From NCBI GenBank assembly GCA_001821055.1, contig MHRT01000007.1, positions 7,931-71,930 on the forward strand: DNA of 64,000 bases, read 5' to 3'. Positions 4,673 through 52,162 of the stretch are shown here, one piece after another; the first letter of the stretch is position 1; every line of letters begins with the position of its first letter. This DNA comes from Candidatus Taylorbacteria bacterium RIFCSPHIGHO2_12_FULL_45_16 (GTDB lineage: Bacteria; Patescibacteriota; Minisyncoccia; Phycocordibacterales; PALSA-1337). A program made the position numbers and the translations under genes. Below the pieces are notes generated by a model. It was not told where the DNA came from and searched no databases. It saw nothing but the letters and a program-made list of their open reading frames with translations.

Positions 4673-4790
4673 CTGTTCCGGCGGCAAGCTACTTTCGCCC
4701 CGTGGGACTATCATCGCCGCAACTACGTTTCACTGCCGTGTTCGGAATGGGAACGGGTGTTGCCATAGCGCCAAACCACCAGAACAGAAG
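4673..4790 (-). rRNA. rrf: 5S rRNA
   Basis: Minus-strand sequence ...GTTCCCATTCCGAACACGGCAGTGAAACGTAGTTGCGGCGATGATAGTCCCACGGGG... matches the 5S consensus. The 5' CTGTTCTGGTGG pairs with the 3' CCGCCGGAACAG. Confidence 0.8.
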
Positions 4791-5231
4791 ATTCAATGGA
4801 ATCTCTATCACATATCTCAAATATAAGGCCATGTAATCTATCAAACAAGCAATATCCGCCTCACTCCTCGACAAGCTCGGAGCTACGGCGTGGCACCCTC
4901 CTTCGCGTAAAGCTACGGAAGGGTTTAAGCGATTTTCAAATTTCCTAATAGGATCGACGGATTAGTACTTCACGGCTCAACACCTTACGGCGCGTACACC
5001 TAAAGCCTATCAACGTGATCATCTCTCACGGGTCTTTAACGATACCTAATCTTGGGGCCGGCTTCCCGCTTATATGCTTTCAGCGGTTATCCGATCCGAA
5101 CATAGCTACCCTGCGTTGCTCTTGGCAGAACAGCAGGTAGACCAGAGGTTCGTTCAACTCGGTCCTCTCGTACTAGAGTCAAATCCCCTCAAGTATCAAC
5201 GCCTGCAGTAGATAGGAGACCAACCTGTCTC

Positions 5232-5590
5232 ACGCATGTTATAAATCCTGACGACTTTTATGTCGGAAGGATTATCAATGATTACTCATTGCATTGGACT
5301 ATAGCTTCCTTCAATTTCTTGAAGTGTCGATGTTTAGTCTCTACGGGCGATTATGAATTTCATAAACTTCCCTCGGTATTGCCCTGAGAAAATATGTAAT
5401 ATTTTCGAAGGGTTCCACCGATATAAATCGACTTGTTCCTACTACGCTCTTTCAGAGCTTCGTAGGACCGCCGTGGTTGATTGACCTACTTCCTAACTGT
5501 TACAACACAAAGCTTAAAATGACTTTGTGTGCTATTAAACAAAAAATATTCTCGAAGTGATTCAGACTGTCCTGAGGCAATCTTTATTGC
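5232..5590 (-). mobile_element. Group I intron, ORF-less, in 23S near the E. coli ~2590s site (approximate boundaries)
   Basis: The insertion breaks GCGAGCTGGGTTCAGA | ... | CGTGAGACAGG. It contains R-like (CGTAGAGACTAAA) and S-like (AAGCTATAGTCCA) group I core elements. Confidence 0.6.
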
Positions 5591-5595
5591 CGAAG

Positions 5596-5628
<33 letters not shown>

Positions 5629-5957
5629 TTGGCGAACAGCCAAACCTTTGGGAGCTTCTCCACCCCCAGGATGTGGTGAGCCGACATCGAGGTGCCGAAC
5701 TCCGCCGTCGATATGAACTCTTAGGCGGAACTAGCCTGTTATCCCTAGAGTAGCTTTTGTCCGATAATCTTCCGCCGCATCTAATGCGAACGGTCGGTTC
5801 ACTTGGCTCCGCTTTCGCGTCTGCTCGACACGTACGTCTTGCAGTCAAGCCAGCTTGTGCCCATACACTATCGCCACGGTTTCCATTCGCGGCTAGCTGA
5901 CCTTTAGGCTCCTCCGTTACTGTTTAGGCATTTGTGTTACTTTGTTTGTAATTTTTT

Positions 5958-6478
5958 ACAAAGGATAAGTATTTCTACTTACCTCTTCATGTCGCCATGA
6001 AGATCGGACTATAATTTCATTCGCTTTTGGCGAACGATTAGCGTTTAGTCTCTGAGGATCCTGAAATACCTGAAGGAAGAGGGTAGTACCAAACTACCCC
6101 TGTGTGTGGTTCTTACAATCCCCACACCGAATAAGCATTATCGTAACCAGGACCACGGTTATAGGTACCATCTTCTACTGACCGTTCCACGGCTCGCTGA
6201 TGCTCAAGAATATCATGCAGTTCGGCCACACTTGTTGTTGGGAATGCGCGAACGTGTAAACTTACATGCTTAATTTTCGTCTTTGATTTTTTCTTTTTCA
6301 TATTCTTTTCCTCCTTCAGATATTTCAGTTTCCTGCTGATTGTCCGCACCAAACAGATTTTCACTCTGCAAATTTAATTGCCGAGTACTGTTGGATACAA
6401 CCGGATTTTCCAGCATATAGCTAATCACCTATTCAATTTCTTGAATACCCCCTAAATTTATTTATTTGAAGAGATTAA
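5958..6478 (-). mobile_element. Group I intron in 23S (near E. coli ~2256) carrying a small ORF
   Basis: Breaks GGGGCGCTATCC | ... | CCTAAACAGTAACGGAGG. Contains P/Q-like (TATGCTGGAAAATCCGG), R-like (CCTCAGAGACTAAA) and S-like (AATTATAGTCCGATC) elements. Confidence 0.65.
6113..6364 (-). CDS. Intron-encoded small ORF (83 aa), possibly a degenerate homing-endonuclease remnant
   Basis: ORF lies entirely inside the group I intron at 5958-6478, is Lys-rich, and has no clear motif. Confidence 0.25.
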   Translation of the reverse strand: MKICLVRTISRKLKYLKEEKNMKKKKSKTKIKHVSLHVRAFPTTSVAELHDILEHQRAVERSVEDGTYNRGPGYDNAYSVWGL

Positions 6479-6899
6479 ACTTCTGGTGGCGCTATAGTAA
6501 GGCCGAACTATTCATTTGAATGAATAACACGGCCAAGGATAGCGCCCCACTAAAACTGTCCATCATATACTGTCTCCCGGTGGTTGTGCCACTGAGGTTA
6601 GAATATACATTTTTAAAGATTGGTGTTTCATCGACGGATCCACGCCCCCCGAGAGGAACGCTTCAAATCCTACCAACTACGCTACGCATCAAAAACGTAT
6701 AGTCAATATAAAATTACAGTAAAGCTTCTAGGGTCTTTTCGTCTAACTGCAGGTAACCGGCATCTTCACCGGTACTGTATTTTCACCGAGCAAGTCTCCG
6801 AGACAGTTCTCCAGTCATTACACTATTCAACGCGTCAGAACTTACCTGACACAAACTGTTACTTTTGTCCGAGATGGACATGACTTGCAAAAATTTATA

Positions 6900-7928
6900 T
6901 AAATAAAATCTTGCAAGCGGTGTGACGCGAATCACACTCTGCATGTCGCCATGCAGTTCAGACTATATCACATTCTCTAAAACCACTGGTTTCAGAGATC
7001 TTGGCGTGTAGTCGTTGAGGAGCTGTTGAAGTAACATCAATCTCTTTCTTTGTCGTTCGTGATGTAATGGATATTGATTGAGAAACATCTTGCATACTTT
7101 TTTGAGTATGATCCGACTGTTTATTTCAAGATGGTAAACACCATCTTTTCTCAATCTGACATTTCCATAATTCACAAACTTATTTATCAATTCAATTATC
7201 TTTTTATCTTTCATTGCAATCATGAAGAATGGTTCTTGGACAAGCCCTGAAGACTTATATCCAAAAGAACCTTCTCCATCAATCACTCCCGCTATAAAAT
7301 AACCGAGAGAATCCTGATCAAGAGGAAGTAAATCAAACTGCTGATCTACGATTCCTCTGGTTTTAACCTCTCGTAATTTTCTTCGTAATTCTTCAATTTC
7401 TATAGTTTTCTCCTTTTGAAATCTATGTGCCCTGTGACTTTCTAGGTACACAAGAACAGTTTTCAAAAGAAGAATGCGATTTTTTGCGAGATCGCCTATA
7501 GGAATTGGGTACATTTCCAGAAAATTAAGTGCCGTTCGCACTTTACTTTTGCCTCGAGCTGAAAGATTATACGCACCCTTAACCGGGGATATGACTCCTC
7601 GATTATTCATTACCACGCGGTTAACTTCATTAAGAAGTTTTCGATCTGCGTTCGTAACTGTCAGAACGACCATGTAGTAATAATCATTGGGCTTTTTATT
7701 TGTTGTTTTAATAATTGAACATGACATTTCGGCGGCAATGAGCCCCGAAAAATAGAAATTGTTTTTCAACATTTCCTGCGGATTGTCCGGCCTTTGATTT
7801 TTACCAAAGTCATTGGAAGCATTTTTACTCATGAAACAATTATCTCATGAGTAGCTCCAAATACAACCGGATTTTCCCGCATATAGCCAAGTTTTCCATA
7901 AAGATCACTCTCTATGGTCCCAGTCTTC
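6900..7928 (-). mobile_element. Group I intron in 23S (about E. coli 1943/1944, downstream of the 12-nt micro-exon AGCGCAATTCCT at 7929-7940), encoding a LAGLIDADG endonuclease
   Basis: Exon resumes TTTGTGTCAGGTAAGTTCTGAC. The P/Q-like and R/S-like elements (CCGGATTTTCCCGCATATAG / CATGTCGCCATGCAGTTCAGACT on plus) are shared with introns 5958-6478 and 7941-8477. Confidence 0.65.
6963..7832 (-). CDS. LAGLIDADG homing endonuclease (double-motif type), intron-encoded
   Basis: Second motif is YFIAGVIDGEGSFGY. The degenerate first motif is NFYFSGLIAAEMSCSI. The ORF is located inside the 23S group I intron. Confidence 0.8.
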   Translation of the reverse strand: MSKNASNDFGKNQRPDNPQEMLKNNFYFSGLIAAEMSCSIIKTTNKKPNDYYYMVVLTVTNADRKLLNEVNRVVMNNRGVISPVKGAYNLSARGKSKVRTALNFLEMYPIPIGDLAKNRILLLKTVLVYLESHRAHRFQKEKTIEIEELRRKLREVKTRGIVDQQFDLLPLDQDSLGYFIAGVIDGEGSFGYKSSGLVQEPFFMIAMKDKKIIELINKFVNYGNVRLRKDGVYHLEINSRIILKKVCKMFLNQYPLHHERQRKRLMLLQQLLNDYTPRSLKPVVLENVI

Positions 7929-7940
7929 TAGGAATTGCGC

Positions 7941-8477
7941 TAATTTTTGTTAACTGCATGTCGCCATGCAGATCGAACTCTATCTTCTTAACTCACTTTG
8001 AATTAAGTCTGACGTTTGGTTTCTGAGGATTCTACAATACCTTAAGGAAGGGGTGAGGACGAATCTCACCCAAGTTCATTTCGGACTTTCGGCCTCTTTT
8101 GGTCTATTAACAGACAGCTCGAAATCCAATTTGCACTTATCCGAACATGTGCTACGAACATTCCAGTTGGGTGAGTTCAGACGATCAATTGGAATTAATT
8201 TTTCGCACATTGCACATCTAGTTGATCTTTTACTTTTCATAATACCTCCTTAAGGTATTGTAGTCTTTCCTGCTGATTGCCCGCACTTTCCGATTGTCAC
8301 CACTTTAACTAGCTAAAGTGGTACGAAAAGATACTCGGACTTCCCAGCATATAGTCAGATATTTTTGGACATCTATTCGTTCAATAGATAGGCAGCGTCT
8401 TAATTTACTGCGTTGTTTGTGTTTCTAAATTGTTTAACATTTCGCCATAACAGTCCTAGTCCTTCTTGGTTCACCTT
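7941..8477 (-). mobile_element. Group I intron in 23S at E. coli position 1931 (after GGTCCTAAGGT), ORF-less
   Basis: Upstream exon ends CGGTCCTAAGGT at plus ~8478. Shares P/Q and R/S-like elements (ACTCGGACTTCCCAGCATATAG / GCATGTCGCCATGCAGATCGAACT) with the other two introns. Confidence 0.6.
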
Positions 8478-8491
8478 GCGGAAAACCAAGA

Positions 8492-8526
<35 letters not shown>

Positions 8527-8699
8527 CAGGGCTTATAACGCTCACCACTATATCTTGCGACATAGCAACGGCATTATTTGACCTTCTGGCATTGGTCAAG
8601 TGTCACCCCCTATACATCCTCTTACGAGTTCGCAGGGAGCTGTGTTTTTGTTAAACAGTTGCCAGAGATACTTTAGCTGCGGCCAAAGTAGGGGTTAGA

Positions 8700-8985
8700 A
8701 GTTAGAAATATATTATGATACAATTATGTACATGGTAACAGACGGACCTTGGACAGTAATACTTATAGTCGACCTGTTTATCTTTTCATTTCTCTTTGGT
8801 GGTGGGCTGTATGTACGATCAACTCATGGAATACTAGCTATTAAAAGAGTGTTCGCCAAAATGCCACCAAAACAAAAACGTAATACAATGGACTATAAAC
8901 TTAGTCTCTTCCTGAAAATAGTTTTTGTTACCACTCTCCTCATAGCTATTGTAAGCATCATCGCACTAATAATTTTTTTCTGATT
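8700..8985 (-). other. AT-rich stem-enclosed intervening sequence in 23S domain IV (between GCCGTAACTTCGG... and ...GATACC/CAGCTAAAG)
   Basis: Flanked by the complementary arms CCAAAGTAGGGATTAGAGTTTAGAAAT and ATTTCTAACTTCTAACCCCTACTTTGG. The insert has no rRNA homology. Confidence 0.55.
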
Positions 8986-9743
8986 TCTAAACTCTAATCC
9001 CTACTTTGGCAAGCCTTATTCCGAAGTTACGGCTGCTTTTTTGCCGAGTTCCTTGGAGACCTCTCACTCGTTCGCCTAGGTCTACTCGACCTGATCACCT
9101 GTGTCGGTTTGCGGTACGGTTTTTACGTGGTTATGCTTAGAAGTTTTTCTTGGAAGCGTGCTTTGATGCATTAGCCTTTTTACAGGCGACTGTGCTTCGC
9201 TTGCGTTCGACATTGAAGTCAGGATCCGGATTTGCCAAGACCCACACTTACGCTACACACATTAAATCCAATTATATGCGCATCATACTACACTCCGTCA
9301 CTCCATCGCACCACGCAAAAGTTATGGAATATTAACCATATGTCCATCGGGTGCGGCGTTCGCCATCCCCTTAGGACCGACTAACCCTTGGCTGATATAC
9401 ATTGCCAAGGAAACCTTGATCTTTCGGCGTGCGGGTATCTCACCCGCATTGCGGTTACTTGTGCCAACATTCTTACTTCGCAACGCTCCAGCATGGGTCA
9501 CCCCTTTGCCTTCAACGCAGATGCGAATACTCTCCTACCGCTTGTGTACTTAATTAAGGGGGCAACTCTCACGCAACATGGTCGATTAAGTTCGACCTGA
9601 CATATTTCCAGGTTCACGCCTACGTTCCCCAAACCTTCTGGTCTAAGATACGGGCAAGAGAAGCAGAAAATGCTGGGAGAGTTACCCAAAGACAAGAAAT
9701 CATTCTTGGTTGCGATTTTTACCTGAAAAATCGACGAAAAAAG

Positions 9744-9816
9744 TGGCTCCCAGGAATGGGCTTGAACCATTAACCTTCGCATCGCTGCGTTGCTCTACCA
9801 ATTGAGCTACCTGGGT
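9744..9816 (-). ncRNA. tRNA-like element 2 inside the helix-45 IVS (73 nt, encoded CCA); anticodon arm replaced by a GNRA-capped hairpin
   Basis: Sequence ACCCAGG-TA-GCTC-AATTGGTA-GAGC-A-[CGCA-GCGA-TGCG]-AAGG-TTAATGG-TTCAAGC-CCATT-CCTGGGA-G-CCA. Confidence 0.4.
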
Positions 9817-9875
9817 AACCGATTCAAATTTACTTACTTCCGTAAAGTGACGACCTTTTCGTCACTCTGAAGAAG

Positions 9876-9951
9876 TGGTGCGAGTGGGGCGGTCTCGAAC
9901 CCCCGACCTCCGCCGTGTTGGGGCGGCGCTCTGCCTCTGAGCTACACTCGC
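9876..9951 (-). ncRNA. tRNA-like element 1 inside the helix-45 IVS (76 nt, encoded CCA); non-canonical anticodon loop
   Basis: Sequence GCGAGTG-TA-GCTC-AGAGGCA-GAGC-G-CCGCC-CCAACAC-GGCGG-AGGTC-GGGGG-TTCGAGA-CCGCC(C)-CACTCGC-A-CCA. The acceptor stem is a perfect 7 bp. Position 33 is C and the anticodon reads AAC. There is one mismatch or an extra nucleotide in the T-arm. Confidence 0.45.
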
Positions 9952-10879
9952 ACAATGATTTAAGTGTGTGGAAGGATGACGCATGCACGTTCCCTTCATC
10001 CCTATGAACAGGACAAGTTACGAACTTGCGGGATTTCCCATTTCCGGATCCGCCATTCCTGTTCTAATTAATACGGATCCATTCAAGAGGTGACTATGAA
10101 AATTGACCAATTTACGCGCATCAAATTCACCATCACCTTATGCGAGAGATCTGCACAATCCCCAGGAACACACAATCGTTGCCTCTATGAGCAGAATTTG
10201 AATCCGAATTCTCCGGAAACAAATTCCGCCCATAGAAGCCAAAGAACAAATTTTCCTTAATAAAGTACACAAGCCCTCAGTTTCGGTACAACATTTTAGC
10301 CCCGATTATCTGCGGCGCGAAATTTCTCGATGAGTGAGCTGTTACGCTATCTTCGAATGATGGCTGCTTCTAAGCCTACATCCTCATTGTTATAGAAATT
10401 TCACTACCTTAAGCGCACTTAATGTTGATTTAGGGACCTTAAATTGAGATCCGGGCTGTTTCCCTTTTGACCAATGGAGCTTAGCCCCCACAGTCTAACT
10501 GCCGGATAATTACCTTACGTATTCGGAGTTTGATAGGTTCAGGGATCTTTCGACCTGTCAGAACCTTCCAGTGCTCTACCCCGTAAGGGTACATCCGACG
10601 CGAACCCAAAAGTTCTTTCGGAGAGAACCAGCTATTACCAGATTCGATTAGCTTATCACTCCTTACCACACGTCATCCGATAGTTTTGCACGGCTAACCG
10701 GTTCGGGCCTCCATCCTCCTTTCGGAGAACTTCACCCTGCGCGTGGCAAGCTCATCTGGCTTCGGGTCTTTAGCAAACTACGAGCGCCCTGTTCAGACTC
10801 GGTTTCCCTGTGACTCCGTCCTCGCGGACTTAGTCGAGCAGCTTGCTAAAACTCGTTGGCTCATTCTTCAATAGGCACG

Positions 10880-10980
10880 CCGTCACGGACAACACAAATT
10901 AAACAATTTAACTATTCAACAATTGAACTATTAATAATTGTTAAATGGTTCCTTTGTAGAATTATTTAATTTGTGTTGTC
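10880..10980 (-). other. Helix-25-region intervening sequence of 23S, an AT-rich hairpin carrying the four-helix-bundle cassette end motifs (ORF-less)
   Basis: Inverted arms GACAACACAAATTAAA / TTTAATTTGTGTTGTC enclose ttcaacaattgaactatt + aattgttaaatggttcctttgtagaatt. Confidence 0.55.
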
Positions 10981-11038
10981 CGCTCCGACTCCTTGTAGGC
11001 ATATGGTTTCAGATCTATTTCACCGCCCTTCCGGGCTG

Positions 11039-11078
<40 letters not shown>

Positions 11079-11494
11079 TAGAAAAATATTTAGACTTGCC
11101 AGTTAGTTCTGGCGGATTCCACCGAGCTTTTCGTGTCCCGGTGTACTTGAGAATCAAGACAAAGAAGATCTTTTATTTTCGCTTATGGGACTATCACCCG
11201 CTAGGGTCGAGCTTTCCAGCTCGTCAAGCTAATAAAAAATTTGATAACTTCTCTGCCAATTCTAAATAAATAGAATAGCACGTCTCAACCTCGCAACCCC
11301 CTACTCCGCTCGTTACTACGTAACGAGCTTCGAAGGGCAAGTTCCTTTATTTAGGGCCTGCCCTTCGTAGCTCATGCGTAGCAATGAGCGAAGTAGGGTT
11401 TAGTCTTCTCCGCGTTCGCTCGCCGCTACTGACGGAATGCATGTTTGTTTATTTTCCACCTGGTACTGAAATGTTTTACTTCCCAGGGTACGCT

Positions 11495-11686
11495 CCTGCT
11501 TAGATTTTTGGGTTCTTGACAAAAAGAATATAATTTGATACTATATCTAGTGAAGATTTACAAGGTTTCTTACCCTAAGACTTTCTGAAGCCTTCCGCTT
11601 CGACAAGTTCTTGGAAGTCACCCTTGAAGTTTTCACTAAGGCCCCCGTGGGCCTTTTTCTTTTTTGAACACAAAAATCTAAGCAGG
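11495..11686 (-). other. Helix-9 intervening sequence of 23S (~150 nt from the 5' end), closed by a 16-bp stem
   Basis: Arms CCTGCTTAGATTTTTG / CAAAAATCTAAGCAGG. The insert has no rRNA homology. Confidence 0.55.
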
Positions 11687-12240
11687 TCTCCAGGTTTTAC
11701 CTGAAGGGGTTTCCCCATTCGGACATCTTCGGATCAAAGGTTGCTCGGCACCTCCCCGAAGCGTATCGCCGCCACGCCACGTCCTTCATCGCTTTTTCTA
11801 GCCAAGGCATCCACCATACGCCCTTTAAATTTCCTATTAGGAAATTTAAAAACCGTTTTCACCCTTCGAAGCTCCTTTTTAGGAGCGAAGTAGGGTTTGT
11901 CACGCCATAGCCATTTTTCAATGGCGACGGCGGACTATTACTTATTTACCTACATGGTATCTGTCATATGCTCGACCCGAGCACATAACAAACCGGTTCG
12001 AAATGATTCTACTCGAATCACCTGAACCCCTTATAATTTGAGATATGTAATTTTCAAGATTCATTCGTCCTGCATTGTCCTCCGAAGCTTTCCTGACCTC
12101 CGAAGCTTTAGCGTAGGAGGTAGCGAAGGAGGAAAAGAAAAAACCGCTTCGGCGGTTACAAGCTAAGCTCTATTACTAGAGTTTGGCTATGGCCGCTTTA
12201 ATATTCGGTTAATCTTTGTATTCATATCTGAGTACAAGTA

Positions 12241-12269
12241 AGTATACGGATGGCCAAGAATATGTCAAG
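12241..12269 (-). promoter_or_regulatory. Sigma70-like promoter for the 23S-5S operon (TTGACA-17-TATACT), about 395 nt upstream of the mature 23S 5' end
   Basis: -35 element is RC of plus 12264-12269 and -10 is RC of plus 12241-12246. It sits immediately downstream of the terminator of the upstream gene. Confidence 0.55.
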
Positions 12270-12293
12270 GGTTTTGCCGAGGTGTAACCTCGA

Positions 12294-12323
12294 CAAAAAG
12301 CGGTCAATTTGACCGCTTTTTGT
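12294..12323 (-). terminator. Rho-independent terminator (AAAAAGCGGTCAA-TTGACCGCTTTTT)
   Basis: Perfect hairpin flanked by A/T runs, directly after the stop of the 12349-13035 gene. Confidence 0.7.
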
Positions 12324-12348
12324 GAAATAATAAATGTCGTGGAAACCA

Positions 12349-13035
12349 CTAGTCCTTTTCTTCAACGGCCCGAATAGTCTTGTCAATAATCTTGGCAGCC
12401 GCATCCTTACCACCGAGACCAAATGCCAATCCGGCAGCCAATGCGGCACCAGCAAAAATGGCGACAATGATAGTCTGGATCCAAGGAGCAATACCGAGAT
12501 TGAAGAGAGCGGTCAGGATAGCAAATATCCAGATGGCCCACTTGGTAACACGGCCTAGGAGCTCTGCCATCTTGACATGGGCAGCGCGTGCACTGGCAGC
12601 GACAATCCTTTGCATGGCACTACCGACAATAACGGCCGCCATAAGAATGAGAATCGCAACAATAACTTGTGGAAGATAATTGACCACATCCCGAAGGAAG
12701 TTGTTGACCTGAGTCAAACCAAGCACATCAAAAGATGCGATCAAAAAGACGACGATGACAAACCATTTGACGACGGCCCCAACGAACATGCCAGAATTAA
12801 GATTGTGGCCGGCACGTTTGACGACATCCTCAAGACCGGCGCTCTTCAAAGCGGCGTCAATCTTGAGAGATCTGAAAATAGTCTCAACAAGCTTTTCGAT
12901 GAGCGCAGCGAGCACCCAACCGATAGCAAATATAATAAGAGCGATGACGAGGTTCGGTATAAAACCGGCAACACCGTACCATACGCTCTGGAGAGAACGG
13001 GCAAATACATCGCCCCACGACTCAATAAACATCAT
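12349..13035 (-). CDS. Membrane protein with conserved-TM-helix repeats (MscS-associated TM_helix-like)
   Basis: Two repeated TM modules plus a C-terminal segment LAAGLAFGLGGKDAAAKIID. Confidence 0.55.
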   Translation of the reverse strand: MMFIESWGDVFARSLQSVWYGVAGFIPNLVIALIIFAIGWVLAALIEKLVETIFRSLKIDAALKSAGLEDVVKRAGHNLNSGMFVGAVVKWFVIVVFLIASFDVLGLTQVNNFLRDVVNYLPQVIVAILILMAAVIVGSAMQRIVAASARAAHVKMAELLGRVTKWAIWIFAILTALFNLGIAPWIQTIIVAIFAGAALAAGLAFGLGGKDAAAKIIDKTIRAVEEKD

Positions 13036-43180: not shown

Positions 43181-43208
43181 GCTTTTACCGAGGTGGAACC
43201 TCAGTAAG
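43181..43208 (+). repeat. Partial copy of the intergenic repeat family (gcttttaccgaggtggaacctc); it supplies the last six codons and stop of ileS
   Basis: Matches the 3' part of copies 2 and 3. The ileS C-terminus TEVPPR* is encoded within it. Confidence 0.55.
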
Positions 43209-46200
43209 AGTTACTTTAAACTCAACATCCCCTGTCACCACTGGTTCTCCAACCACACTCCCAAATCTAACTTCAGAAATAGTGCACGCCGCCTTCACTT
43301 GTTTTTCATTATCCTCAACAAATTTCCGTCCAGCGCCATTGGTATCCAAAATAAGCACAGCTTTGTCATTCATACTCAATCCTTTTTCTTTACGCAGATC
43401 CTGAATGGCACGGATAAGTTCGCGGGTCATACCCTCCTCTTTGAGTGTGGGGGTGATGGTCGTATCCAATTCGACATCTTTCTCGATTGTAACTCCAAAG
43501 ACGACCTCCTTCACATTCACTTCATCCTTGATCAGTCCCACAAAATTATCCGCCAATGACTTTGATTTTTGATTTTTAACTTTTAACTTGCTCAAGGGCT
43601 GTCTGATATTGATCTTGGCCGCCATGCGCGCTTCCAGGCCTTTTGAACAAAGAGTGCGGACCGTCTCCATGTTGGCGATTAGATCCGAGTCAATTTTCTC
43701 CGCCGCCGGCCATGTTTCAAGATGCACACTCTCCAATCCTCCACCGACTTCTTGATACAAATAATCAGCGAAGAATGGTGAAAACGGCGCCATGATTTTT
43801 GCCAAAGTAATAAGCACATATCGCGTGGTCAAAATAGCCATTTCTTTGTCAACTAAATCGCTTCCCTTGAACCGATCACGCGAGCGACGGATATACCATT
43901 GCGACAAATCACCGACAAAGTCCCGAATTGAACGAGTTGGTTCTTGAAATGTGTAAGCATCCAATCCTCTAGTCACAATCTCTGTGATCTGATTGAGTCG
44001 GGTTATTATCCAGCAATCAAGGATATTGACACTAACCTTTATCCCTCCGCTTCTCTGCTTCTTTTCTCCCCCATACATCTTGTAAAACGACAATACATTC
44101 CCCGCTAGATTGAAGACTTTCTTGACTATTTCATCTACTGTTTTCTCCTCAAAATTCTTTGAGTCACCGGGCTGATTGACCGAATACATCCAGTAGCGCA
44201 GGGCGTCAGCTCCATATTTATCCATCATCTCCCAAGGAGAGATGACATTACCAACCGACTTGGACATTTTTTTGCCATGGGCATCTAGGATATGGCCCAA
44301 ACAGATGACATTTTTGAATGCTTTACCCTTGCCCATGAGTATGCCGACTGCGTGCAATGTATAAAACCAACCACGCGTCTGATCTATGGCTTCGGAGATG
44401 AAGTCTGCTGGGTAGGCTAGATCTTGTTTTTCGGAAAAAAAACGGCTGAATGTATTTCCTCCTTTTACAAATGGGTAATGGTCCTGCGCGAACGGCATAG
44501 ATCCAGAATCAAACCAGACGTCCATGACTTCTTTGACACGCGACATCGTGCCGCCACAGGCACAAGACAATTTAACTTCGTCGATATGCGGGCGATGTAG
44601 ATCAAGCTCGTATTCGGCGTTGTGCGGAATCACCGAAAAATCAACCAGACGAATCTCTGAATTGTTTATGTATTGGCTTTTTTCCAATTCGATGGAGCAG
44701 ACGCGGTCAAGACCCTTGGCAGAGGAGAGCAACATCATGGCCGGTGTCGCATGAGTAATGATGAGTATCGTCTTGTTAACATATTTTCCGTCAATTTCAT
44801 AGAGAAAATCCCCGGTGCGTTTTTTGACATCGCCGTATCTTTCGGCGCCAGGTGGTACATGTTCGAAGCGAGACTCAAACGGAAATGTTTCAGACAAATC
44901 CTTGACTTTCTTGCCATCATAGTCGCCAAAATCAAGTTCATTCAGTCGTTCGTCGATAATGACCTTATCATCTGAAAAACCGAGCGCCTCTTGAATAATG
45001 GCCGCAGTCCGGCGCGCTCGCAAAAACGAGGAGTGATAGATGAGATCAATGCCTTTGCCTTTGAGAGAGATAGCTGTTTTATTTACATCTTCTTCGCCGA
45101 CAGAAGTGAGATCAAACAGTTCACGGTCTTGGGAATTTAAGATTCCTTCAGTATTATTTTCCGCTTCCCCGTGGCGCATAATATGATAGGTATTTCGCGA
45201 CTTCTGGGCAATCTCCTGCACCGAACCAACAACTTTACTCTTTTGACAAGTACCACAGATCCAAACAGGCAATGGCGTGCCCCAATATCGTTCGCGGGAA
45301 ATAGCCCAGTCTTTGATCTCACGAAGCCATTCGCCAAATCTGCCATCCTTGATATATGCCGGTTCCCAGTGAATACCTTCGTTTTCTTTGATTAGTTCCT
45401 TTCGTAAAGAAGACATTCTGATGTACCAAGAGTCGCGAGCAAAGTAGATTAGAGAAGTTTTACAGCGCCAACAAAATGGATAGCTATGCTGGTGCTTTTC
45501 TTTGTGAAATAGAAGGCTACCGTCCGGGCGATTGGCTAGATCCTTTATTATCTCAACATCGGTGGCCTCATCTCTGACGAATTTTCCCGCCAAAAACCCA
45601 GCCACCTTTTTGAAAGTTCCATCTTCATTGACCAAATGATATCTTGGCAAACCTACTTTGGTCCCAAGTTCAAAATCGTCCTGACCGTACATGACGGCCG
45701 TGTGTACGATACCAGTGCCGTCCGTAGTTGTGACGAAATCAGCGGCATATACTTTGTAAGCATTCGAAAGTTTTTCCTTTTCAGCACCGGAGATAGAATC
45801 TTGTAGAAAGGAGTAAAGAGGTTCATATTCAAGACCGATAAGTTCTTTCCCTTTTATTGTTTCAAGAATTTTGGCGTCTTTGAATCGTTCCCCAAGGACA
45901 CTTGTGCGATCCTTAGCAAGAACATAGTATTCCAAATCCAAGGTTGGACTTTGCACAGCCACTTGTACGTACTCAATGTTCGGATTCACCGCCAGGGCGA
46001 CATTCCCCGGCAATGTCCACGGTGTGGTTGTCCAAGCCAATAAATACACTTCTTTACTGTCAGATGTTTTCGGAAAAATCTTCTCAATGTTTGTGATTCG
46101 AAACTTCACTGTCACAGCCAAATCTTTCACATCCTGGTAACCCTGCGCCAATTCATGCGAAGACAGCCCCGTTCCGCAACGCGGACACCAAGGCACAACC

Positions 46201-46747
46201 TTGTAATCTTTGTACAAGAGTTTCTTCTCGTCAATCGTCTTCACGATATTCCAGAGAGACTCAATATATGAAGACTTATAAGTGATGTACGGATCCTTTA
46301 AATCAACCCAATATCCCATCCGGTTAGTGAAATCAGCCCACTCATGTACATGTTTCCAGACACTTTCCTTGCATTTTTCGTTGAACGCGCCAATGCCGTA
46401 GGCTTCTATCTCTTTCTTGGATTTCAGGCCCAACTCTTTTTCAACCTGCAACTCAACCGGCAGACCATGAGTATCCCAGCCACCTTTGCGCCTCACATGA
46501 AAACCACACATTGTTTTGTAACGCGGAATAGCATCCTTGAAAGCTCGGGCTTCAAGATGGTGAATGCCCGGAAGTCCATTGGCCGTCGGTGGACCTTCAA
46601 AAAATACGAACTCTTTGCCGCCCTCGGTCTTTTTAAGCGACTTCTCAAAAATCCCTCTCTCTTTCCAGAAAGTCAAGATCTTCTCTTCACGCTCGGCGTG
46701 GGGAGATTTGGTTTGGTTATTTTTTTGTTGATTATTTAATTCAGCCA
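43185..46747 (-). CDS. ileS: Isoleucyl-tRNA synthetase with a nested histidine-phosphatase (PGM/SixA-like) domain (start set at MAELNNQQ)
   Basis: HIGH-like GIHHLEA, CP1 WCPRCGTGLS, WAISRERYWGTPLPVW, zinc knuckle WICGTCQ...SCACGG, DVWFDSGSMPF and KMSKS are all present. A ~200-aa insert sits between the two halves of the zinc knuckle. Confidence 0.9.
44700..45190 (-). other. Histidine phosphatase superfamily (branch 1, PGM/SixA/CobC-like) domain nested in ileS
   Basis: YHIMRHGEAENN (RHG catalytic His), SSFLRARRTAAII, RLNELDFGDYDG, PPGAERYGDVKKR, ILIITHATPAMML (second His). Confidence 0.8.
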
Positions 46748-46783
46748 TAATGTCCACACAAATCAATTGGTTCCAACAGAATA

Positions 46784-48610
46784 TCACATCCTCTTCGGCA
46801 CTTTTATCCCCAACAGCCACAAACCATCCGTCATTGTTATAAGGAATGCTTGCGTCAGATTCAGGCGATATGAAGTCAGCGGATCATTTTCGACAATAAT
46901 CTTATTAGTCGCATAGTAGACGTTGAAAGCCCCGGCCAGAGTGATCAAATAATTGGCGACATGTTGTGGTGCGTATTCCATCCTGGCGTGTTCAACAATA
47001 TCCGGAAATCTTGATATTAATTTTTCTAATAATGTAACCGACTCTGGAAGTATCCCAACAAGGTCGGGCCTTGGGATGATCTGCGCCTGACTTTCAGTTT
47101 GCGAATTTTGATTATTTCCTTCTTTGTTTCTTTGCTTGTCTTTCGATACTTTAGCATAGGAGGACTTTTTTCCTTTTTCCAATACTGCTCCCGCCCTCAC
47201 CGCCGCGTATTGCAAATAAGGCCCGGAATCCCCTTCAAATGAGATAGACGCCGCTGAATCAAAAATAACATCACTGCCGATGGTTTGGCGTAGAATCGTG
47301 TATTTTATCGCCCCGACCGCCACAATATCGGAGATTTCCTCTTTTTCAGCCGGACTCAATTCGCGATCGGAGATTTTATCCATCACCAAAGATTTGATCT
47401 CGCCAAGCAATGATTCAGCTGAAATAACATTGCCTTTCCGCGAAGCCATCTTCCCCGAAGCGAAACGAAGCATGCCGTGTGAAATATGTTTTGTTTTGGT
47501 GAATATGTTTTGGTCAATCAGTGAGAATGCTTTCAAAAGGACTTTGAAATAATCATTTTGTTCATTGGCTGTAATGATTATCGATTCAGTCAGATCGGGA
47601 TATTTTTTGAATTTTTCGATATTCAAACCGATCTCTTTGGCCTCATAGGTGGGCAGTCCCTGCGAAGTGATGAAGACGCGGGTATGCAGTCCATAATCCT
47701 CTCCTTTGAAGATTACGGCTCCTTCACTTTCGGTGAATACGCCTTTCTTGAGAAACTCACGGACGACCTTGATTCCATTGTCAGCAACCTCACTTTCAAA
47801 AAAGAATTCATTGAACTTGGTACCGAGGCTGGCGTAAATAATATCAAAATATTCCAGGCTCCATTTTCTACCCTGGACATATATTTCATTAATATCTTTA
47901 TCCGATTTTTCAAAGATTTTCTTGTTTATCACCGCGATTTCTTTTTGAACCGCCTCATCATCGTCAAATTTTGCCCCAGAAACATACATCTCCCCAAGCC
48001 ATTTGACTTTTTCCGTAACAGAACCGAGATTTTCCCCACGCTTCTCATTTTTGCTTCTTTCCTTTTCTTTTTGTATCGCCCAAATCGTCTTGGCCACATG
48101 CAAACCCACATCACCTTGATAACAGGCGCGGATGACCTCCGCACCGGAGCCTTCAGTCAACCGAGAAATCGACTCGCCGATTGCATTTGACATCAGATGC
48201 CCAATATGAAAAGCCTTGAATGGATTTGGATCAGTATACTCAACCATCACTTTTTTGGAGGTCCGACCTCCAGATCTGTGGATCCGACCCACAGATAGAG
48301 CCGTGGCAACAATCTCTTCCACGAAAACTTTATCCTTGATTTTAAAATTGATAAATCCGGGACCATCAACAGAAATCGATTCGACAAAGCTTAATTTCTC
48401 GCCCAAATATTTTTTTAGTTCGGTAATTATTTTCTCCGCCAGAATTTTCGGTGCCATGTCGAGCTGTTTGGCATAAATCATCGCCACATTGCAGGAAAAA
48501 TCACCATGTGCTGGGTTTTCGGGATATTCCAGCTTGAAAGATGGCATGTCGATGCCCAATCCGACCAAAATCTTATCCACAGCTTGTCCCAGTTCGACTT
48601 TCATATTCAT
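46784..48610 (-). CDS. argS: Arginyl-tRNA synthetase (start set at MNMKV)
   Basis: HIGH motif PFKAFHIGHL, an N-terminal Arg_tRNA_synt_N-like domain, and a C-terminal DALR anticodon-binding region. Confidence 0.9.
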   Translation of the reverse strand: MNMKVELGQAVDKILVGLGIDMPSFKLEYPENPAHGDFSCNVAMIYAKQLDMAPKILAEKIITELKKYLGEKLSFVESISVDGPGFINFKIKDKVFVEEIVATALSVGRIHRSGGRTSKKVMVEYTDPNPFKAFHIGHLMSNAIGESISRLTEGSGAEVIRACYQGDVGLHVAKTIWAIQKEKERSKNEKRGENLGSVTEKVKWLGEMYVSGAKFDDDEAVQKEIAVINKKIFEKSDKDINEIYVQGRKWSLEYFDIIYASLGTKFNEFFFESEVADNGIKVVREFLKKGVFTESEGAVIFKGEDYGLHTRVFITSQGLPTYEAKEIGLNIEKFKKYPDLTESIIITANEQNDYFKVLLKAFSLIDQNIFTKTKHISHGMLRFASGKMASRKGNVISAESLLGEIKSLVMDKISDRELSPAEKEEISDIVAVGAIKYTILRQTIGSDVIFDSAASISFEGDSGPYLQYAAVRAGAVLEKGKKSSYAKVSKDKQRNKEGNNQNSQTESQAQIIPRPDLVGILPESVTLLEKLISRFPDIVEHARMEYAPQHVANYLITLAGAFNVYYATNKIIVENDPLTSYRLNLTQAFLITMTDGLWLLGIKVPKRM

Positions 48611-51661: not shown

Positions 51662-52162
51662 TTATTTGTGCGAATCTGTACCAGCCCCTCTCTGAAACTG
51701 TCCTTTCGCCCCTTCAACCAAGTATACATCCTTTATCCCAGCCACGATCATGGCATCCCAGCAAGACTTGCAACACCACCAGTGCCCCCAATGATACAGA
51801 TCCGCGCCTGTAATGTCACCGTAAGCTTTTTGGGCCGCTTTAATGGCACGAGGTTCTGAGTGCAATCTTGGAGAAGCACAGCCTCGACAGATCCAGTACT
51901 TCTGTCCAGTCGGAATTTTGAGGAATCTGCGAACGCAAAAAACTTCCCGGTGAAATTTCATCAATCTCTTGCTCTTCAGAGCCGATTGATTGGCCGCTGA
52001 GCCGATAATTTTTCCACTCACGACAATAACGGCACCCGTTGGCCAAAGCCTATCTGTCGACCCCTCCAACGCCATCCTTTTGGCCGCCGCCATAAAAAAA
52101 TTCGCGATCGGCACATAAATAAATTTTCTCCCCTCTGGAATATATGGATAGTCATTTAGCAT
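51662..52162 (-). CDS. dCMP deaminase-like (cytidine/deoxycytidylate deaminase fold) with an extra Cys cluster
   Basis: HSE...CCKSC zinc motif, additional CVRR...CRGC cluster, divergent from thyA. Confidence 0.6.
   Translation of the reverse strand: MLNDYPYIPEGRKFIYVPIANFFMAAAKRMALEGSTDRLWPTGAVIVVSGKIIGSAANQSALKSKRLMKFHREVFCVRRFLKIPTGQKYWICRGCASPRLHSEPRAIKAAQKAYGDITGADLYHWGHWWCCKSCWDAMIVAGIKDVYLVEGAKGQFQRGAGTDSHK

Follow-up and report, generated by a model that had tools for sequence, protein, structure and literature searches.

Two tRNA-like elements in a helix 45 intervening sequence of a Candidatus Taylorbacteria 23S rRNA gene

The helix 45 insert and its contents

The window analyzed here, a stretch of 64,000 nucleotides (nt) from contig MHRT01000007.1 of Candidatus Taylorbacteria bacterium RIFCSPHIGHO2_12_FULL_45_16 (assembly GCA_001821055.1), carries on its minus strand a 23S rRNA gene in which the loop of helix 45 (H45) has been swapped for an insert of 711 nt (Table 1; all positions without another contig name refer to the window). 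Within this insert lie two cloverleaf-shaped elements, termed element 1 and element 2, which by their sequence are tRNA-like beyond chance and almost certainly non-decoding.

The Rfam model of bacterial large-subunit (LSU) rRNA aligns through the region and shows one long insertion in the loop of the hairpin next to the conserved ACCGAA..GAGG segment on its 3′ side, i.e., in H45, and alignment to a gammaproteobacterial 23S record from an E. coli collection places the site at about position 1165-1170. The GGUAGGAGAG motif flanking the 3′ strand of H45 is kept in all the relatives described below. An earlier note on this DNA had put an insert of ~690 nt at the H45 tip (E. coli ~1170), closed by a perfect stem of ~20 bp; the LSU alignment agrees with this site, while the closing duplex is indeed an extended stem but an imperfect one, consisting of 12 bp of native H45, a U.U mismatch and 7 further bp (19 pairs across 20 positions), which gives the insert proper a length of 711 nt.

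Read from 5′ to 3′, the insert is composed of a long hairpin, a branched hairpin domain, element 1, a second hairpin, element 2 and a 3′ domain, and its predicted fold as a whole reaches -290 kcal/mol (z = -14.5 vs. shuffled sequence). A 12-bp pairing of 10158-10169 with 9746-9757 (minus strand; GUUCCUGGGGAU with AUUCCUGGGAGC), a rival to the acceptor pairing of element 2, was also seen in the minimum-energy fold of the whole insert, and the two segments have in addition the direct repeat UUCCUGGG in common. The insert contains no open reading frame (ORF) having homologues: a 94-aa ORF on record over its 3′ part had 0 homologues among 5.8 billion proteins and is spurious. No match to the Intron_gpI family was obtained within 9552-10262 at E ≤ 10, whereas four are found elsewhere in the same gene, and the other Rfam families matched in the insert at this threshold were limited to microRNA-type hairpin noise, YrlA (20 bits) and the tymovirus tRNA-like element (19 bits). 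Internal promoters or terminators did not exceed the shuffled expectation in the insert, and the rest of the window held no repeat-like copies of it, including copies of the miniature inverted-repeat transposable element type.

Against the Rfam tRNA model (RF00005, gathering score 29 bits), element 1 scored 50.8 bits (E = 1.3e-9, matched at 9879-9951 on the minus strand) and element 2 scored 45.9 bits (E = 2.9e-8, matched at 9747-9816 on the minus strand, with 4 nt in place of the model’s 7-nt loop). Both cloverleaf-like sequences with encoded CCA that the earlier note had picked out thus lie above the gathering score, and their tRNA-likeness survived scoring with a covariance model; ARAGORN called the first of them as tRNA-Val(aac) and missed the second. 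Element 1 has a perfect 7-bp acceptor stem, A73 and an encoded CCA, and its anticodon loop reads CCAACAC, with C33 followed by A34-A35-C36; the anticodon arm had been described correctly, but the 3′ strand of its T stem also carries a bulged G that had been overlooked. Folded on its own, its cloverleaf (-30.8 kcal/mol) lies 3.3 kcal/mol above the minimum free energy (MFE) structure (-34.1 kcal/mol). Element 2 has a D arm (GCUC-AAUUGGUA-GAGC) and a T arm (AAUGG-UUCAAGC-CCAUU), and its anticodon arm is replaced, as first described, by a stem of 4 bp that ends in a GCGA tetraloop of the GNRA type (CGCA-GCGA-UGCG), while the acceptor stem has only 6 of 7 pairs (A1.A72 mismatch); it ends in G73 followed by CCA, and its MFE structure, when folded alone, is exactly the cloverleaf (-22.6 kcal/mol).

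Comparison with the standard tRNA numbering located U8, A14, G18, G19, A21, G53, U54, U55, C56, A58, and C61 in both elements, together with a 15:48 pair (G:C in element 1, A:U in element 2) and encoded RCCA 3′ ends (ACCA in element 1, GCCA in element 2). Both elements have kept the features of an L-shaped RNase P substrate, namely the acceptor/T-arm stack, the G18G19-T-loop contact, the 15:48 pair and the RCCA end. A decoding tRNA has seven nucleotides in its anticodon loop, including U33 and a purine as nucleotide 37, as well as uninterrupted T (5 bp) and acceptor (7 bp) stems; neither of the two elements combines these traits. Element 1 is judged to be non-decoding because of C33, A34 and the bulged T stem, and element 2 because the GCGA tetraloop replaces its anticodon loop. 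Bacterial TadA is reported to form I34 in tRNA-Arg and tRNA-Leu only (PMC8266599), and A34 is foreign to the tRNA-Val of bacteria. Both modules are non-decoding tRNA-like folds set in a longer precursor, as is characteristic of tRNA-like processing elements. The YrlA match covers parts of both elements, but with 20 bits (E = 0.32) against a gathering score of 69 an identity as YrlA or another bacterial Y RNA was rejected.

Reproducibility, relatives and similar shapes elsewhere

The insert was recovered in 10 contigs originating from 11 samples and from three kinds of assemblies (JGI, MEGAHIT-style (k141) and ANAN16 scaffolds). Seven independently assembled contigs showed 0 differences over the 751 nt compared, which comprise the insert and both of its junctions, and the three others had no difference inside the insert and a few mismatches elsewhere in the 23S gene; one of these three (L236) ends at window position 9492, 48 nt past the 3′ end of the insert. 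Strain variants of the insert were absent from the 10 contigs (0 substitutions), and consequently there is no covariation signal. Only one 23S gene was seen in this Candidatus Taylorbacteria population.

The gene order L10, L7/L12, hypothetical protein, MscS, and 23S-5S is conserved in Paceibacteria, which made it possible to retrieve the 23S genes of relatives. The MscS-like gene of the window lies just upstream of the 23S gene, and an identical protein is present in Candidatus Taylorbacteria bacterium RIFCSPHIGHO2_01_FULL (Candidate Phyla Radiation (CPR)/Patescibacteria, Rifle aquifer). The comparison set consisted of the 23S genes of six further lineages, whose MscS identity to the window is 75-85%; for nearer relatives, at 91-93% (JGI 3300045330/3300045333, GCA_964619985.1), the contigs end where the 23S gene starts, and the DUF7847 protein encoded downstream diverges too quickly to lead to them, its next match having ~55-59% identity and lying on contigs of 1.5 kb. 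In four of the six relatives (L004, L237/L238, L241, and L244) H45 is a plain hairpin of 28 nt with UUCG as its loop, and the remaining two (L019 and L239/L240) carry an unrelated, Y-shaped H45 insert of 116-118 nt. The H45 stem of the relatives occupies the same place, with 12 positions and 10 to 12 pairs. The tRNA-bearing insert is absent from all six, and their 23S genes gave no tRNA matches with Rfam (all six, E ≤ 0.1 or lower) or ARAGORN (five of them, not L244). The seven lineages that share the gene order are therefore distributed over a plain hairpin (four), a ~117-nt insert (two) and the tRNA-bearing insert (one). From these sequences, the H45 tip is an insertion hot spot with at least three states, and the sporadic pattern is typical of classical intervening sequences (IVSs).

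The Y-shaped inserts (L019, 7630-7745; L239/L240, ~12632-12749) are homologous to each other, yet the lineages that carry them (85% and 76% MscS identity to the window, respectively) are not closest kin, and the lineages between them have the plain hairpin. This pattern suggests that a second family of IVSs has been lost and gained, or else transferred, among these lineages.

For the comparison of the modules with other genomes, a degenerate pattern of element 2 with a shortened anticodon arm was scanned against GTDB genomes, a GNRA-specific one against JGI metagenome contigs and IMG/VR, and a pattern of the D arm of element 1 against IMG/VR. Shapes of tRNA with a shortened anticodon loop proved to be widespread, occurring in the genomes of bacteria, in metagenomes and on phage contigs (loci L020-L233), with at least 87 distinct sequences having an intact acceptor stem. 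In many of them a stem of 4-6 bp carries a tetraloop of the GNRA or UUCG type, and the stem sequences are very diverse. Rfam scores these shapes as weak tRNAs (32-46 bits) and ARAGORN reports them as tRNA-??? with a 2-nt “anticodon”. Many of them are located within tRNA gene arrays, e.g., in gut phage contigs with the order Pro-Thr-[tRNA-like]-Thr-Gln-Gly-Trp-Ser. Example loci are L195, L198, L203, and L213 (IMG/VR phage contigs) as well as L146, L154, L167, L033, L051, and L035. Outside the shared tRNA core, the pattern matches had no similarity to element 2 or to the insert.

The elements in these arrays follow the same design as element 2 (normal acceptor, D and T arms combined with a 4-6 bp stem and a 4-nt loop), and we know of no family name for them. 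They differ from it in their setting, as among the matches listed they occur in bacterial or phage-contig tRNA arrays and never in a 23S gene. Given how widespread the shape is among diverse stems, element 2 is regarded as a recurrent design and not as a one-off product of decay. The pair formed by an odd tRNA and an anticodon-less tRNA is most likely a fragment of a tRNA gene array. A further pair of adjacent odd tRNA-like genes was noticed in another CPR genome, on a Candidatus Saccharibacteria contig (L053, 2692-2870, plus strand), where one gene is 90 nt long with a 4-nt “anticodon” (ttca) and the other is anticodon-shortened. Viral matches to the D arm of element 1 were ordinary phage tRNAs of various isotypes and are uninformative on origin.

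Other features of the 23S gene and the window

With ~6.9 kb the 23S gene is heavily interrupted, by group I introns, by inserts in H45 and in helix 25 (H25) and by several other inserts. The 3′ half of the gene contains all four group I intron matches (Table 1) and a 289-aa ORF that is annotated as LAGLIDADG_1 in the source contigs. Contigs with an identical MscS protein and an identical H45 insert differ in their content of introns and homing endonucleases (L008 and L010 vs. L007), L008 having three extra LAGLIDADG ORFs and L010 a 199-aa ORF at a different place, which indicates a strain-level polymorphism of introns. The 23S-5S unit is isolated: no 16S gene was found within the 64-kb window, which makes a linkage of 16S and 23S appear absent. 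In the region upstream of the 23S gene (11838-12349), a promoter-like site close to the consensus (TTGACA-16-TATACT) is located beyond a terminator-like hairpin.

Farther away, the isoleucyl-tRNA synthetase (1211 aa) has a histidine-phosphatase/phosphoglycerate-mutase-like domain inserted at about residues 545-705, which separates the two halves of the synthetase match. A 166-aa protein of the cytidine/deoxycytidylate deaminase type also matches the MafB19-like deaminase family, while NCBIfam assigns it to no family; as its gene is neighboured by those for thymidylate kinase, ThyA, dCTP deaminase, and DHFR, a dCMP deaminase is more probable than TadA.

Table 1. Positions of the helix 45 insert, its parts and other features of the window
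Feature	Position	Strand	Basis or detail
Intervening sequence, 711 nt, in place of the H45 tetraloop	9552-10262	-	LSU model alignment
Native H45 stem, 5′ strand (GCUUGUGUACUU)	10263-10274	-	Pairs with 9540-9551 in the minimum-energy fold
Native H45 stem, 3′ strand (AAGUACACAAGC)	9540-9551	-	Minimum-energy fold
Terminal 7-bp helix of the insert, AUUAAGG with CCUUAAU (9553-9559)	10255-10261	-	Minimum-energy fold
Long hairpin, 20 bp + 6 bp, 5′ part of the insert	10181-10239	-	Fold; also weak “miRNA precursor” matches
Element 1, Val-type tRNA-like cloverleaf, 76 nt	9876-9951	-	Rfam tRNA, ARAGORN
Hairpin between elements 1 and 2, 6 bp + 10 bp	9836-9876	-	Fold
Element 2, anticodon-less tRNA-like cloverleaf, 73 nt	9744-9816	-	Rfam tRNA
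3′ hairpin domain within an 11-bp helix (9687-9677/9570-9560)	9560-9733	-	Fold
23S rRNA gene	4954-11837	-	Two Rfam LSU_rRNA_bacteria matches (8386-11837, 4954-6776) covering model positions 1-2925
5S rRNA	4676-4783	-	Rfam; after the 23S gene
Group I intron match	5985-6478	-	Rfam, 51.6 bits vs. gathering score 50
Group I intron matches, sub-threshold (28.6-37.1 bits)	7954-8411; 6939-7195; 5275-5551	-	Rfam
LAGLIDADG_1 ORF, 289 aa	6963-7832		Annotation in source contigs
H25 insert	10885-10983	-	AT-rich hairpin
Terminator-like hairpin	12142-12157		
Promoter-like site	12241-12268	-	TTGACA-16-TATACT
MscS-like gene	12349-13035		
Isoleucyl-tRNA synthetase	43185-46820	-	1211 aa
Cytidine/deoxycytidylate-type deaminase	51662-52162	-	166 aa

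Proposed processing and origin of the insert

With moderate confidence we infer that the insert is a lineage-specific IVS with a non-decoding cargo derived from a tRNA array, and that RNase P and RNase III both take part in its removal. An acceptor/T-arm stack of 12 bp, an intact elbow and a 3′ RCCA together make up a canonical bacterial RNase P substrate, and an encoded CCA is an anti-determinant for bacterial RNase Z. The insert would be transcribed within the pre-23S rRNA, RNase P would cut 5′ of each module (between 9952 and 9951 and between 9817 and 9816), and the 3′ ends of the modules would be trimmed back to the encoded CCA. As both elements encode this CCA, 3′ maturation by trimming is expected and RNase Z, which the earlier note had named as a possible helper besides RNase P, is an unlikely participant. 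RNase III would cleave the 19-bp closing helix and the insert would be removed without religation, so that the mature 23S rRNA would consist of two pieces, joined only through the pairing of the H45 stem. In this scheme the tRNA shapes would act as de facto cleavage sites, a tRNA punctuation inside rRNA, and upon folding of the modules the cuts by RNase P alone would sever the pre-23S rRNA at H45.

The part assigned to RNase III follows the model of the classical IVSs in H25 and H45, which are excised by this enzyme from an extended stem without religation and leave a 23S rRNA that is fragmented but functional (PMC8708148). The 19-bp closing helix fits this route, and by analogy with the classical cases its terminal 7-bp helix, or the extended H45 as such, is a candidate RNase III site. 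In CPR rRNA genes, short inserts at classical RNase III IVS sites have been described, as have unexplained ORF-less inserts of 500-1000 bp (PMC11270868).

Several observations weigh against a part of the tRNA shapes in processing. The H25 insert of the same gene is an AT-rich hairpin of ~100 nt (z = -8.1) whose 24-bp stem is perfect and which lacks any tRNA-like part, and tRNA shapes are thus not needed to explain how inserts of this gene are handled. The absence of the H45 insert from all six relatives speaks against a selected processing role. When the insert is folded as a whole, its structure of lowest energy has 10158-10169 paired over 12 bp with the 3′ acceptor strand of element 2, and the cloverleaf of this element may not always be formed. 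Among the ~50 ORFs scanned in the window there is no gene for RNase III (rnc), RNase P or RNase Z, and the window holds no other tRNA-Val gene. No homologue of the insert was found among the matches listed (GTDB, JGI and IMG/VR), nor any pattern match beside a 23S gene, although this absence is weak evidence, given that the JGI set scanned evidently did not contain the source contigs and that the GTDB matches were listed in part; without homologues for comparison, the intact tertiary nucleotides could just reflect a recent capture. In view of the tRNA-free H25 insert, the relatives without the H45 insert and the alternative pairing of element 2, we do not claim that the tRNA shapes were selected for processing.

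A stronger version, in which cleavage by tRNA-processing enzymes is the reason why the modules persist, is regarded as rather doubtful. It would entail a “tRNA-punctuated” excision independent of RNase III and the release of stable small RNAs that mimic tRNA, one of which, having the valine set (A35, C36, A73, and ACCA), might be charged by ValRS without decoding.

The alternative that survives best, possible though considerably less probable than the reading we favour, is that RNase III excises the insert as it does classical IVSs and that the cloverleaves are decaying tRNA pseudogenes without any part in processing, the excised RNA being degraded. It draws on the closing helix of 19 bp and its location at one of the classical sites of RNase III-processed IVSs (PMC8708148), on the perfect, tRNA-free stem of the H25 insert and on the three defects of element 1, as well as on the missing insert in six of six relatives, which implies that the H45 insert is evolutionarily young or dispensable. 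Unlike in random decay, however, the defects are concentrated in the anticodon loops while the nucleotides of the tertiary contacts are intact, and a 4-nt loop would match GNRA at random in only about 1 of 32 cases. Moreover, an RNA that is folded as a tRNA and ends in a 3′ RCCA is, by established knowledge, an expected substrate of RNase P, whether this is “intended” or not. The earlier note had offered tRNA-like processing signals and captured, decayed tRNA genes as two readings; this interpretation is partly supported and, since one reading concerns the effect and the other the origin of the shapes, they are compatible with each other, although sequence alone cannot separate them.

It is improbable, in our estimate, that the modules are released as small tRNA-like RNAs and then serve an independent function, for instance as decoys or partners of tRNA-handling proteins or as a mimic that can be valylated, with the rRNA operon serving as a strong promoter. 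Such a role would agree with the full set of L-shape determinants and the RCCA ends being kept while decoding is disabled, with the recurrence of the tetraloop-for-anticodon design on very different stems, which suggests a selected design, and with the non-translating pseudo-tRNA of Bacillus cereus, for which a cellular role is documented (PMC3399842). The elements are nevertheless found in one lineage only, no gene for a partner protein was found nearby in the window, and the score with the YrlA model stays far below its gathering score.

Slightly less probable again is that element 1 is a working tRNA-Val whose AAC anticodon would be deaminated and read as IAC, and which the rRNA operon would express in the manner of spacer tRNAs. 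The ARAGORN call points in this direction, as does the presence of A35, C36 and A73, which we take to be the Val identity set, and the score of 50.8 bits is just under that of the lowest bona fide tRNA scored here (52-74 bits); the lack of a linked 16S gene in the window also means that there is no 16S-23S spacer for tRNAs. These points are opposed by C33 in place of the near-universal U33, by A34 (see above), by the bulged G in the T stem, by the fact that none of the six relatives has a tRNA at the same place, and by the companion element 2, which is wholly unable to decode.

That the insert is retained as an expansion segment and displays tRNA-shaped domains on the ribosome surface is very unlikely. 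It is very strongly structured, and according to the summary of Gregory et al. 1996 given in PMC8708148 an unprocessed H45 IVS is tolerated by E. coli ribosomes, but good RNase P substrates in transcripts are normally cut (established knowledge), and CPR rRNA insertions compared with transcripts were missing from mature rRNA, as far as Brown et al. 2015 is cited in PMC9297842. Finally, an assembly chimera of an rRNA gene and a tRNA locus, which the earlier note had held possible, is practically ruled out even though rRNA genes are often misassembled in metagenomes and the 5′ junction of scaffold L236, where the 23S gene begins, looks foreign, because the insert and its junctions are identical in 10 contigs from different samples and three assembly kinds and because its complementary ends extend the native H45 stem, which is not expected from a chimeric join.

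An IVS that carries tRNA-derived cargo and is cut by RNase P in addition to RNase III, as we favour, would have partial counterparts in several known systems. The spacer tRNAs of bacterial rRNA operons (tRNA-Ile/Ala between 16S and 23S, and distal tRNAs) are likewise tRNA shapes co-transcribed with rRNA, and their cleavage by RNase P separates the flanking rRNA pieces; they are, however, working tRNAs located between genes, whereas the present shapes lie inside the 23S gene and look non-decoding. In Tetrahymena mitochondria, a tRNA-Leu reportedly lies between the alpha and beta pieces of the LSU rRNA and its processing is said to define their ends, in keeping with the tRNA punctuation model of mitochondria. 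That case differs in being organellar, with a functional tRNA and another split position, while here disabled modules are found at H45 in a free bacterial lineage.

With the classical H25 and H45 IVSs of Salmonella, Yersinia, Campylobacter, Rhodobacter, and others, the insert shares the position at the H45 tip, the extended stem that replaces the loop and the complementary ends, as well as the patchy occurrence among close relatives, the expected lack of religation and an H25-type insert in the same gene. The classical examples are single stems of 100-200 nt (PMC8708148), in contrast to the 711 nt and several domains of the present insert, and for its two tRNA-shaped modules no report was found for any IVS. 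A non-decoding tRNA mimic within a longer transcript is also known from the 5S leader of Haloferax volcanii, the t-elements of plant mitochondria and the mascRNA of MALAT1; in Haloferax, the tRNA-like structure 5′ of the 5S rRNA is cut by tRNase Z (PMC3296008). Those elements are conserved and their cleavage has been demonstrated, whereas elements 1 and 2 are known from sequence alone and missing in relatives, and unlike in the Haloferax case their encoded CCA argues against RNase Z.

Our full-text literature searches returned no report of a tRNA or tRNA-like element inside a bacterial 23S IVS, and tRNA is nowhere mentioned in a survey devoted to the insertions of CPR rRNA genes, which includes 348 23S genes (PMC11270868), in agreement with the view of the earlier note that such contents would be unusual for an rRNA IVS. 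Insertions abound in these genes, and the same survey leaves many long, ORF-less, non-intron insertions of CPR rRNA genes unexplained (PMC11270868). That one insert of this kind carries tRNA-derived modules suggests fragments of tRNA arrays as a source of inserts, and the universal tRNA-processing machinery as a route for their removal. If nothing accumulates from the insert and relatives never share it, it would be an evolutionary accident of limited consequence; if RNase P does cleave it, it would represent tRNA punctuation within a bacterial rRNA, otherwise known from organelles and one archaeal 5S leader.

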